From NCBI GenBank assembly GCA_964393575.1, contig CAYMUG010000001.1, positions 39,803-78,332 of the forward strand: DNA of 38,530 nucleotides, given 5' to 3'. The position numbers were made by a program. The stretch's first letter is position 1; each line of letters starts with the position of its first letter. Origin of the DNA: an uncultured Candidatus Saccharibacteria bacterium. Lineage in GTDB: Bacteria > Patescibacteriota > Minisyncoccia > Spechtbacterales > 2-12-FULL-38-22. Shown in pieces: positions 16,701-19,700 of the stretch.

Positions 16701-19700
16701 AGGTATGAGAAAAACCACAATTTTAAAGTTTACAAGCGGTGTCTAACCAGTAGCTTAAATATTGGTTTAGAATAACCGCTTGTAAAAAGCGGTTTTTATT
16801 TGCTCTGATTCGTCATTTGACGGAGAAGAGTTTGTACCTTAACAACTAAAGAGAATCATATAATTCCGCGGTGATATTATGTAAAGGCGCGCGGCGGATG
16901 CCTAGACACCGGAAGAGGAAGAAGGACGTGGCTTAGCTGCGATAAGCCTCGGGGAGGTGCGTAGCAACCTTTGATCCGGGGATCTCCGAATGGGGGAACC
17001 CGGCATGGTAAACCCATGCTATCCGACTTTGCGTCGGAGCCTTACCCGCTGAAGTAAAACATTTCAGTAAGCGGAGGAAAAGATACCGCAATGGTATTCC
17101 CTTAGTAGCGGCGAGCGAAGAGGGATTAGTCCAAACCCGATTTCGGTTTTTAACCGAAGCCGGGGGTTGTAGGACTGCTATACTCACGGGAAAAATTTAG
17201 AAGAACGACCCTGGAAAGGGCGGCCATAGAGGGTAACAGCCCCGTAATCGAAAAATTTGACCTGTGAAGCAGTATCCTGAGTAGTTCGAGGCACGAACAC
17301 CTCGAGTGAAGCAGGCCAAACTATTGGCCAAGACTAAATACTTCCGGTGATCGATAGTGAACTAGTACCGTGAGGGAACGGTGAAAAGTAGCCCGGTGAG
17401 GGCGGTGAAATAGAACCTGAAACCGTGTGCCTACAAGGACAGGGAGGTCGTTCCTCACTGTGTTCGGAACGGAATAACCAATGTTCAATAATCAATAACC
17501 AAACAATCTCCAATAACCAAACTTGATAAAAGTATTCAGAATTTAGTATTTGTAGTTTGAGATTTGTTTGGAAATTGGTGATTGGTAATTGGCGATTTCG
17601 CCCGAGCGTAGCGAGGAGCGACTGACCTGGTGCCTTTTGCATAATGAGCCAACGAGTTTGTATGTACTGCTTGTGTAACCCCGCCCCCTATGCGTTAAAG
17701 TTTGGAGTTTTCAAATTTAAAGTAATGCTTAGGGGGCGGGGGAACGCACAGGGAAACCGAGTCTTAACAGGGCGATTCCGCAGTACATACAAGACCCGAA
17801 ACCAGGCGAGCTATCCATGGCCAGGGTGAACCCCGGGTAATACCGGGGGGAGGCCCGAACCCACTTCTGATGCAATAGGAGGGGATGAGCTGTGGATAGG
17901 AGTGAAAAGCTAATCGAGCCTGGTAATAGCTGGTTCTCCCCGAAATAGCTTTAGGGCTAGCTCCCGATGGACTTTTGTGGAGGTAGAGCACTAGTTGGTC
18001 TGTCGAGGCTTTGCCGAGGCAGATCAGTTAAACTCCGAATTCTGCAAAAAATTTGTCGGGAAGTTAGAGCGTGGGGGCGAAGCTCCATGCTCGAGAGGGA
18101 AACAGCCCAGACCGCAGTCTAAGGCCCCTAAATGCAAGCTAAGTGGTAAAGGAAGTAGGATTTCTAAGACAGCTAGAAGGTTGGCTTAGAAGCAGCCATC
18201 CTTAAAAAAGTGCGTAATAGCTTACTAGCCGAGAGATCCTGCGCCCAAAATGTAACGGGGCTAAGCTTGCTGCCGAAGACGCGGAGCGCGCATCGCACAG
18301 CGTTGCGAGCTGGTAGGGGAGCATTTCTATCGCGCAGAAGGTTCGATGTGAGTCGGGCTGGAGCGATAGGAAGAGAGAATGTTGGCATGAGTAACCGCAA
18401 TTCCGATTAGATATCGGAACGCCGAAAGCCCAAGGTTTCCTTGGCAATGTTAATCAACCAAGGGTTAGGCGGGCCTAACGCGGGGCCTGAAAGGGTCACG
18501 CGGATGGTTAGCCGGTTAATATTCCGGCCCTTCTTTCTCATATGTGATGGGGTGACGGAGTTCTGTACTCAATGCGTATTATCGGATTTACGTCTGTATA
18601 CTGAGGTGGCGTACGGAGAAATGCCGTACGCACTGCACCGAGGTATGCAGAAACCTTGTTCTACGGAACAGGGGATATTGAGGAGCGGACTTCCAAGAAA
18701 AACCTCTAAACGTGAGTAAGAAACCGTACTGCAAACCGACACAGGTGGGCTGGTGGAGGACACCAAGGCGAACGGGTGATTCCTCGTCAAGGAACTCGGC
18801 AAATCAGCTAGGCGTAAGTTCGCGATATGCCTTCCCCGGCCGTTCCTCACTGTGTTCGGAACGGAATAACCAATGTTCAATATTCAATAACCAAACTTGA
18901 TAAAAGTATTCAGAATTTGGTAATTGGTAATTCCGCCCGAGCGTAGCGAGGTGCGGCCGGGGCGCAGCTAAAGTGTGTCTGGCGACTGTTTATCAAAAAC
19001 ACAGGTCCCTGCGAACCCGTAAGGGGATGTATAGGGGCTGACACCTGACCAATGCTGGAAGGTTAAGCGTTGGCGGTTATCTCGATTTTTATCGGGATAG
19101 CTGACCGGCGCAAGCCCCAGTGAATGTCGGCGATAACTATAATCGTCCTAAGGTACCGAAATTCCTTGTCTGGTAAATTCAGACCCGCAGGAAAGGTGTA
19201 ACGACCGGACAACTGTCTCGACGAGGAGCCCGGTGAAAATACAATACCGGTGAAGATGCCGGTTACCCGCGGAAAGAGGGAAAGACCCCGGGAGCTTTAC
19301 TACAGCTTTTCATTGTTTCAGTGTTTCAGATGCGAAGAGTAGCGGGGAGGCTACGAAATTCCGATTCCGGTCGGGATGGAGCCGCCCATGAGACACCCGC
19401 CTTCTGGAATGCTGCGACTAACCCCGATCTAAACCGTCGGGAGACAGTGGATGGCAGGTAGTTTAAGTGGGGCGCTTGCCTCCTAAATAGTAGCGGAGGC
19501 GTCTACTAAGGTCGGCTAGCTCCGGATGGAAATCGGAGTGATAGTGTAAAGGCACAAGCCGGCTTAACTGCAAGGCAAATTAGCCGCGCTTTGTGAAACC
19601 TTGTATTTTGTTACAAGGGAGTAACAGACCCAGGACGCATCACACTGTGTGTGATGCGGAAATCTCAATAACCAAGGACACAAGGTACAAACAAATACCA

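Follow-up and report, generated by a model that had tools for sequence, protein, structure and literature searches.

A probably mobile family of palindromic repeats with hairpin-unit ends at stable-RNA helix tips of a Spechtbacterales bacterium and other CPR lineages

The 23S rRNA gene of an uncultured bacterium of the candidate phyla radiation (CPR), a member of the Spechtbacterales (Parcubacteria), carries in helices 25 and 63 (H25 and H63) two insertions that are sibling copies of one hairpin-shaped, non-coding repeat. They lie in a stretch of 38,530 nucleotides (GenBank assembly GCA_964393575.1, contig CAYMUG010000001.1, positions 39,803 to 78,332), the whole of which we call the window. 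An initial annotation of the window had noticed the pair; it overlooked two more copies, at 12848-13010 in the 16S gene and at 19633-19815 in the 23S gene. The insertions are not a private duplication: judged by sequence, they are part of a widespread family whose ends are predicted to be self-folding hairpin units. We consider it moderately probable that this family is a mobile palindromic non-coding repeat with double-hairpin ends like those of REPINs (inverted doublets of repetitive extragenic palindromic, REP, units), copied at the DNA level into the tips of stable-RNA helices, the resulting rod probably being excised by RNase III or tolerated. Family membership, the multiplicity of sites, presence and absence between relatives, copying within genomes, sense-only orientation and hairpin-unit ends are the directly supported parts of this reading. 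The four members in the operon, all in the rRNA sense, are:

12848-13010, plus strand: third copy, 16S helix 9 (h9), with end units GTCA-TTCCTCACTGTGTTCGGAAT ... CCGAGCGTAGCGAGGAG-TGAC (repeat families D1, D7)
17447-17622, plus strand: H25 copy, placed by alignment to E. coli; 168-nt core at 17451-17618
17447-17470, plus strand: left end unit of the H25 copy, GTCG-TTCCTCACTGTGTTCGGAAC
17602-17622, plus strand: right end unit of the H25 copy, CCGAGCGTAGCGAGGAG-CGAC
18839-18957, plus strand: H63 copy, 111-nt core at 18843-18953; ends and interior as in the H25 copy, from which it differs by lacking 18 nt (left) and 39 nt (right)
19633-19815, plus strand: fourth copy, diverged (subfamily B), 23S near E. 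coli 2353-2365
19637-19657: left end of the fourth copy, a perfect hairpin GCATCACAC-TGT-GTGTGATGC
19792-19810: right end of the fourth copy, a perfect hairpin CATCGCGC-GTA-GCGCGATG

The initial annotation had called the two 23S insertions near-identical paralogs, and a global alignment of 17451-17618 with 18843-18953 bears this out, with 106 matches in 111 positions (5 mismatches, 95.5% identity), a score 23 standard deviations above shuffled sequence, and one gap per arm, of 18 nt in the left arm and of 39 nt in the right arm and apex. On alignment to E. coli 23S, the first insertion follows position ~546 and the second falls within ~1704-1767; the helix numbers follow the standard 23S map. 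The interior arms of the H25 copy are AT-rich and made of tandem repeats (families D1, D2, D7 and D10), and it is in these interiors that the reported compositional skew of the arms holds, the right one lacking C across ~50 nt and the left one having few G. The interior of the fourth copy uses repeats of the CAATAACCAA type, as do those of H25 and H63, and a subfamily-B relative is present in another locus, L133 (L numbers denote the loci fetched for comparison); the interior of the h9 copy is unrelated to those of H25 and H63, and its apical hairpin is GC-rich. What the elements share are their ends. The strings CACTGTGT and GCGTAGCG occur exactly 4 times each in the 38.5 kb, only in the elements and always paired on the plus strand (0.3-0.5 expected), and a degenerate end motif has no occurrence in the window outside the four elements.

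In the sense orientation both copies fold into long hairpins (H25, -66.8 kcal/mol, z -7.9; H63, -63.6 kcal/mol, z -8.8), energies equalled by 0 of 200 dinucleotide shuffles in either case, so the arms do pair as the initial annotation had proposed. Two of its further claims fail: pairing was said to depend on G-U, which makes up merely 5-9 of the 43-67 predicted pairs (12-14%), and the structure was said to form only in the rRNA-sense transcript, whereas the antisense folds are also strong (H25, -58.5 kcal/mol, z -7.8; H63, -59.5 kcal/mol, z -7.3). The related claim of selection on RNA structure is partly upheld, by a sense strand 4-16 kcal/mol more stable than the antisense in three of the four window copies (for the h9 copy, -88.6 vs -72.4) and by the orientation of the stable-RNA-gene copies, 29/29 of which are sense. 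This orientation fits selection at the RNA level, because an antisense rod swaps G-U pairs for A-C mismatches and loses 4-16 kcal/mol; a strand-specific insertion mechanism could also produce it.

Which of these sites are occupied differs between close relatives. Sister genomes were reached via homologs of TrmD or RodA (sister Spechtbacterales vs window, 69% and 54% identity, respectively), and they keep the gene order L32-nusB-RNase III-S16-KH-trmD-16S. Where the window holds 160 nt at 16S h9, four sister 16S genes have only CACCGAAAGGT. One sister assembly (L125) is a gapped scaffold without a 23S gene; another, GCA_040879145.1 (L129), has a full one, which is empty at H63 (CCCTATAGCAATATAGGG), carries a different hairpin of 124 nt at H25, and has a 26-nt hairpin at the ~2355 site in place of the window element. 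In another sister (L121), a related element lies at about 16S h17. Occupancy is therefore lineage-specific, since sister sites are empty or differently filled, and together with the 95.5% identity of the pair this agrees with the earlier proposal of recent paralogs at distant 23S sites, placed by copying or by conversion.

Could the insertions be degenerate introns, whether of group I, group II or the archaeal bulge-helix-bulge type? Tsurumaki et al. 2024 (PMC11270868) describe CPR rRNA genes as carrying many group I and II introns, and the 23S gene of L129 itself contains a group I intron (4432-4823; RF00028, 51 bits) that is missing from the window 23S. Yet the search that detects this intron returns no intron model match in the window at the gathering score, simple hairpins of 111-180 nt are too small, no bulge-helix-bulge appears in the folds, and the elements sit at helix tips, not in the conserved core; an intron origin is very improbable. 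Readings of the elements as CRISPR or tRNA-like were, like the intron and bulge-helix-bulge readings, rejected on anatomy.

Beyond the window, a basal stem of ~25 bp, GYCG-TTCCTCACTGTGTTCGGAAC / CGAGCGTAGCGAGGAGCGRC, is found at at least 11 helix tips of 16S and 23S, and also in RNase P RNA, in many CPR lineages. The sites and the loci that fill them are:

16S h6: L040, L136
16S h9: window
16S about h17: L121
Just 3' of 16S: L010
23S about E. coli 130-178: L133
23S about 270: L042, L070, L131, L147
23S H25: window, L026, L061, L147, L150
23S about 640: L051, L143
23S H45 region: L146
23S H63: window, L061, L147
23S about 2355: window

The RNase P RNA gene of Candidatus Campbellbacteria CP011215.1 (L071 7002-7690, minus strand) holds three family hairpin elements, all sense, and because of these three insertions it scores 67.9 bits against RF00010 (E 2e-20), below the gathering score of 100 bits. 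In JGI metagenomes the right-end 20-mer has 21 matches, of which 13 lie in CPR rRNA genes and represent ~9 distinct elements. Since rRNA operons and repeats are error-prone in metagenome-assembled genomes, collapsed or chimeric repeats might be suspected of creating the insertions; the same ends and placement recur in more than 20 independent NCBI and JGI assemblies, however, and every copy continues seamlessly into a compensating host stem, which makes an assembly artefact scarcely credible.

Across genomes, conservation is limited to the basal ~25 bp, and each genome has its own interior of short, AT-rich tandem repeats. Copies at different sites of one genome have similar interiors (normalised local score 0.77 for H25 vs H63 in L061, 0.52-0.70 among the ~270, H25 and H63 copies of L147, 0.68 in the window), whereas between genomes the same score averages 0.19 (sd 0.08, maximum 0.49). 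Sibling copies at H25 and H63 with a genome-specific interior thus recur independently in L061 and L147, and shared interiors within genomes must stem either from recent copying within the genome or from conversion. How are the two to be told apart? If old intervening sequences or expansion segments had become fixed at H25 and H63 and were kept alike by gene conversion, no transposition would be needed; the window encodes RecA, neither a mobilising enzyme nor a target-site duplication was found, and similar copies fill both of these helices in three unrelated CPR genomes (window, L061, L147). Conversion is nonetheless unable to make a copy at a previously empty site, and it has to contend with a sister whose H63 and 16S h9 are empty and whose H25 hairpin is different, and with the same ends at no fewer than 11 helix tips, in RNase P RNA and in non-RNA DNA of other phyla. 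Because sister sites are empty we favour copying, and regard fixation with conversion alone as quite unlikely.

The anatomy of the ends points in the same direction. Among 22 aligned elements pairing in the extended basal duplex amounts to 82.6%, and 18 of its 31 pairs show compensatory changes; the duplex supplies ~21 bp of double-stranded RNA and includes an A-C mismatch kept in 20 of the 22, three nearly invariant wobbles, and an internal loop at columns 23-25 / 42-44. These irregularities would be explained if the two ends are different self-folding units. Each end is, by its sequence pattern, predicted to be its own hairpin, stem - TC - 2 bp - triloop - 2 bp - TC - stem (on the opposite strand, stem-GA-(G/A)C-RNA-G(C/T)-GA-stem), and the element would consist of two such units, inverted. 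For the left-arm hairpin, pairing reaches 92%, and 7 of the 8 pairs show compensatory changes. The unit pattern (stem-TC-NN-triloop-NN-TC-stem) occurs 225 times in the 1.08 Mb of fetched loci vs 8 times in shuffled sequence, and among cases beyond the seeded 7-mer its inner pair covaries (40 A-T and 42 G-C vs 5 G-T and 2 A-C). The two ends are of different types, AC-NNN-GT on the left and GC-GNA-GC on the right, which gives the element polarity. The right-end core GCGTAGC, with its variants GCGAAGC and GCGCAGC, matches the GCGNAGC "mini-hairpin DNA" motif, which has extraordinary stability (PMC13037366). The RNA energy model puts the rod 14 kcal/mol below separate end hairpins in the three subfamily-A copies, and only 2.4 kcal/mol below them in the fourth; we infer that the transcript forms the rod and that the unit structure is the signature of a DNA-level repeat. 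Hairpin-unit ends of this kind point to a mobile repeat acting as DNA and not to RNA structure alone.

The same observations bear on whether the elements might be purely RNA-level expansion segments, retained in the mature ribosome with a ribosomal role, with a ribosomal or assembly protein binding to the basal stem. The uniform sense orientation and the conserved wobbles and A-C mismatch of the basal stem would suit such a role, and so would the positions h9, H25 and H63, which we take to be the sites of the eukaryotic expansion segments ES3S, ES7L and ES27L. Hairpin elements of mitochondria are likewise retained in rRNA (PMC2800124). A ribosomal function sits poorly with unconstrained interiors of genome-specific simple repeats, with sporadic occupancy between relatives, and with identical end units in intergenic DNA of many non-CPR phyla, where there is no rRNA context; moreover, the two different self-folding end units account for all of the rod's non-Watson-Crick positions. 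We hold this alternative to be improbable.

The relatives in other phyla are numerous. Exact matches to the left-end 19-mer TTCCTCACTGTGTTCGGAA number more than 119 in species-representative genomes of many phyla, where we estimate that ~4 would be expected, and viral contigs hold just 7 copies, so phages are not an obvious vehicle. Outside CPR, AGATTCCTCACTGTGTTCGGAATGACA is paired with TGTCATTCNGAGCGNAGCGANGAATC, mostly as inverted doublets with a spacer of ~20 nt and sometimes in arrays, and such doublets occur on many contigs per genome in Tannerella forsythia, Nitrosomonas, Dehalococcoidia (Chloroflexota), Ruminococcus, Legionella, flavobacteria (Bacteroidota) and others. They adjoin unrelated housekeeping genes, 208 Pfam families being represented among 150 flanking open reading frames (ORFs); among the families with at least two members in these ORFs, which cover the fetched loci, we found no transposase family, no RAYT/Y1 and no TnpA/TnpB. 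As a side observation, a GC-rich repeat in three non-CPR loci (L137, L138, L140), ...GGCCGAAGGCCGGATGAGGGG...GTGTAGCGCG..CCGAGCGTAGCGAGGAGCGAC..., contains the right-end 20-mer; it may be a dispersed relative or a chance match.

The sole recurrent neighbour of the dispersed units is an ORF of ~100 aa for a GIY-YIG (YhbQ-like) protein. Such ORFs occur 5 times within ~500 nt of 109 motifs and twice in the remaining ~0.75 Mb of those loci. In L055 (6162-6537) two inverted end units mark the exact bounds of the ORF, in L102 (6127-7074) it lies within an array of unit doublets with a spacing of 42 nt, in L015 a doublet flanks it, and in L016 and L065 it stands beside units. In L055, too, an end unit encodes the C-terminus of the GIY-YIG protein (...DSSLRSE*). 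GIY-YIG-encoding insertions of CPR genomes, with other stems, are found at these helix tips too (16S h9 in L040, for example); Tsurumaki et al. 2024 (PMC11270868) report that GIY-YIG insertions of CPR rRNA are not intron-like. The Parcubacteria 23S gene of L051 combines a GIY-YIG insertion (2090-2410, about E. coli 270) with an ORF-less H25 hairpin (2700-2815) on a common basal stem, CCCGCCCAACTTT, and the two look like autonomous and non-autonomous members of a different hairpin family. The four window elements contain no Pfam-supported ORF, and there is no GIY-YIG in the window. By association, then, the small GIY-YIG nuclease is a candidate helper of insertion. An earlier idea, that the ends belong to intervening-sequence cassettes of the 23S_rRNA_IVP (four-helix-bundle) type, was dropped: the ORFs between units are GIY-YIG, and a 127-aa spacer ORF of the window has no Pfam match.

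How might such an element spread and be borne by its host? On the mobile-repeat reading, it would spread as DNA by being copied into apical loops of peripheral stable-RNA helices (here 16S h9, H25, H63 and ~2355). Insertion would take place in the loops of existing palindromes, probably in a hairpin- or single-stranded-DNA-dependent manner and without target duplication, possibly assisted by small GIY-YIG nucleases. In the transcript, the ends and the AT-rich arms would pair into a rod, over 40 bp long and stacked coaxially on the host helix, for which reason the rRNA core fold would be undisturbed. The host RNase III (9628-10320) would most likely cut the rod out without religation, by analogy with classical intervening sequences, which leave the rRNA in fragments; alternatively, the rod may persist as a tolerated expansion segment. 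Brown et al. 2015, as cited in PMC11270868, report that transcripts lack the CPR rRNA insertions.

Several points weigh against this reading. No target-site duplication, a hallmark that the initial annotation had suggested looking for, is visible, and the flanks are inverted complements. The similarity of the paralogs could have arisen by gene conversion between old insertions and not by new insertion. A Pfam search of the window ORFs found no transposase or nuclease gene for mobilisation, and the dispersed copies have no dominant protein family beside them, GIY-YIG occurring in just 3 of the 150 flanking ORFs. The preference of the energy model for the rod over end hairpins, 14 kcal/mol in three copies, also counts here, because it means that covariation in the end hairpins may reflect DNA-level history or only ancestry. 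The database searches with the left and right arms used exact strings, so the conservation of these arms is partly by construction. Finally, excision in this bacterium is our inference, and comparable hairpin elements of mitochondrial rRNA genes reportedly stay in the transcript (PMC2800124).

A bolder version can be formulated, which we offer as speculation and think rather unlikely: the elements would form an undescribed class of mobile element for stable-RNA genes, whose GNA/ANA-triloop ends are recognised as single-stranded DNA or cruciform by a small, structure-specific GIY-YIG nuclease and inserted into palindrome loops (rRNA and RNase P tips, terminators), with the basal stem doubling as a portable RNase III excision signal. 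If this were true, the insertions would have no phenotypic effect and would be functional counterparts of introns that depend on a protein, and the ORF-less copies of the window would be the non-autonomous form.

The window contains a single rRNA operon in its 38.5 kb (16S, two tRNAs, 23S, 5S), and by TrmD and RodA the nearest named relatives of its host are Candidatus Spechtbacteria / Spechtbacterales (54-70% identity). Upstream of the operon lie thrS, dnaE, RNase HII, L32, nusB, RNase III, S16, a KH protein and trmD, and downstream rodA, rpoB, rpoC, ftsK, recA, ssb and S6. The position of the RNase III gene is kept in sister genomes. The features concerned are:

9628-10320, plus strand: RNase III gene (Pfam Ribonucleas_3_3, 2e-39, and dsrm, 4e-15)
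12676-14311, plus strand: 16S rRNA gene (Rfam RF00177, 1423 bits), 1636 nt vs a 1533-position model
16870-20333, plus strand: 23S rRNA gene (Rfam RF02541, 2438 bits), 3464 nt vs a 2925-position model
20486-20599: 5S rRNA gene

Other features of the operon stand apart from the family. A fifth hairpin insertion in the 23S gene (17656-17750, after E. coli ~601-615) is unrelated to it, having a GC stem, CCCCGCCCCCTA / TAGGGGGCGGGG, an AT-rich loop and none of the family end motifs, and is missing from the sister 23S of L129. An insertion of ~43 nt at 17152-17194 (after E. coli 23S ~288), common to the sister genome and to the Gracilibacteria 23S of L061, seems to be common to the 23S of the CPR lineage as a whole and not to have been gained recently. 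Directly 3' of the 23S gene, at 20363-20412, is a perfect palindrome of 23+23 nt, which can alternatively be described as a 12-nt tandem repeat, AATCATATGATT, in three copies. Short A/C-rich repeats between trmD and 16S (12330-12400) resemble a solitary arm and complement the right interior arm of the 16S element (inverted repeat I10, 82%). Two ORFs lie in the spacers: one of 127 aa between 16S and the tRNAs (14561-14944), the one without a Pfam match, and one of 226 aa between the tRNAs and 23S (15831-16511), whose product has mechanosensitive-channel transmembrane helices and which has a counterpart in the same place in L129 (509-1195).

These results matter beyond one operon. CPR rRNA genes are known to be insertion-rich, and short ORF-less insertions are the majority at the classical sites of intervening sequences. 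If the elements form a coherent, sequence-defined family that moves among 16S, 23S and RNase P RNA helix tips, this would account for part of the length inflation of CPR rRNA, and it would supply a searchable signature for masking such segments in 16S and 23S phylogeny and for primer design. The basal stem, with its A-C mismatch and wobbles, is a concrete substrate on which the treatment of rRNA insertions by RNase III or another factor could be studied.

Where does the family stand among known systems? Intervening sequences, CPR rRNA insertions and REP-like repeats are each already known. Rfam has no family for the elements or for the dispersed repeat, at the gathering score or at E up to 1, and returned only spurious matches to miRNA hairpins. 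In the limited open-access literature that we could search, the motif strings gave unrelated primers only, queries on GIY-YIG with palindromic repeats and on palindromic rRNA elements gave nothing bacterial, and neither there nor in Rfam did we find an account of the conserved double-hairpin terminus, the spread over many helices and RNase P RNA, or the kinship with pan-bacterial doublets.

At the RNA level, the elements resemble the RNase III-processed intervening sequences of bacterial 23S, which are also extra sequence at helix tips with a long stem and a sporadic distribution among relatives (PMC11270868, PMC4990558). All of these features are present here, as extra sequence at helix tips relative to E. 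coli and sister genomes, paired ends (z ~-8) and sporadic presence. Intervening sequences are known from Salmonella, Leptospira, Campylobacter and Coxiella (helices 25 and 45) and, like the present elements, are thought to have spread horizontally; H25 is a classical site, and the host has an RNase III. The present elements differ from them in that one sequence family occupies many sites (16S, H63, ~2355, RNase P RNA) with sequence-conserved hairpin-unit ends common to several phyla. They are the same objects as the CPR insertions that Tsurumaki et al. 2024 (PMC11270868) describe as under 200 bp, neither intron nor ORF, and frequent at known 23S intervening-sequence sites, and which those authors left uncharacterised as possible RNase III-processed intervening sequences. 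As far as we read that paper, it does not mention a common terminal motif, paralogous copies at different sites, insertions in RNase P RNA or a connection with the dispersed repeats of non-CPR bacteria.

At the DNA level, the family resembles REPs and REPINs in its short, imperfectly palindromic unit, its inverted doublets that form a longer hairpin (as in the Tannerella, Nitrosomonas and Chloroflexota loci), its many dispersed copies beside unrelated genes and its lack of target duplication. It is unlike them in that REPINs are extragenic whereas the present elements lie inside rRNA helices, and in that the families listed for flanking ORFs, those with at least two members, include no RAYT/Y1 transposase, the small GIY-YIG nuclease being the sole enriched neighbour. 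Terminal-inverted-repeat transposons and miniature inverted-repeat transposable elements share the inverted ends, but the flanks here are mutually complementary (GTCG/CGAC, GCCG/CGGC, GTCA/TGAC) and not direct repeats; hairpin ends and the missing duplication would fit IS200/IS605-type elements, of whose TnpA and TnpB there is no trace among the families listed near the copies. The palindromic elements of Rickettsia, like the present ones, are repeats inserted in functional genes where the product tolerates them; they differ in residing mostly in protein-coding genes, in being lineage-restricted and in having another sequence. The hairpin and double-hairpin elements of fungal and sponge mitochondria and the GC clusters of yeast mitochondria are also mobile hairpins found in intergenic DNA and variable rRNA regions (PMC2800124), though these belong to organelles, have no sequence kinship with the family and reportedly remain in transcripts. 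Set among these systems, the family ties the rRNA insertions of CPR bacteria to a pan-bacterial, REPIN-like repeat.

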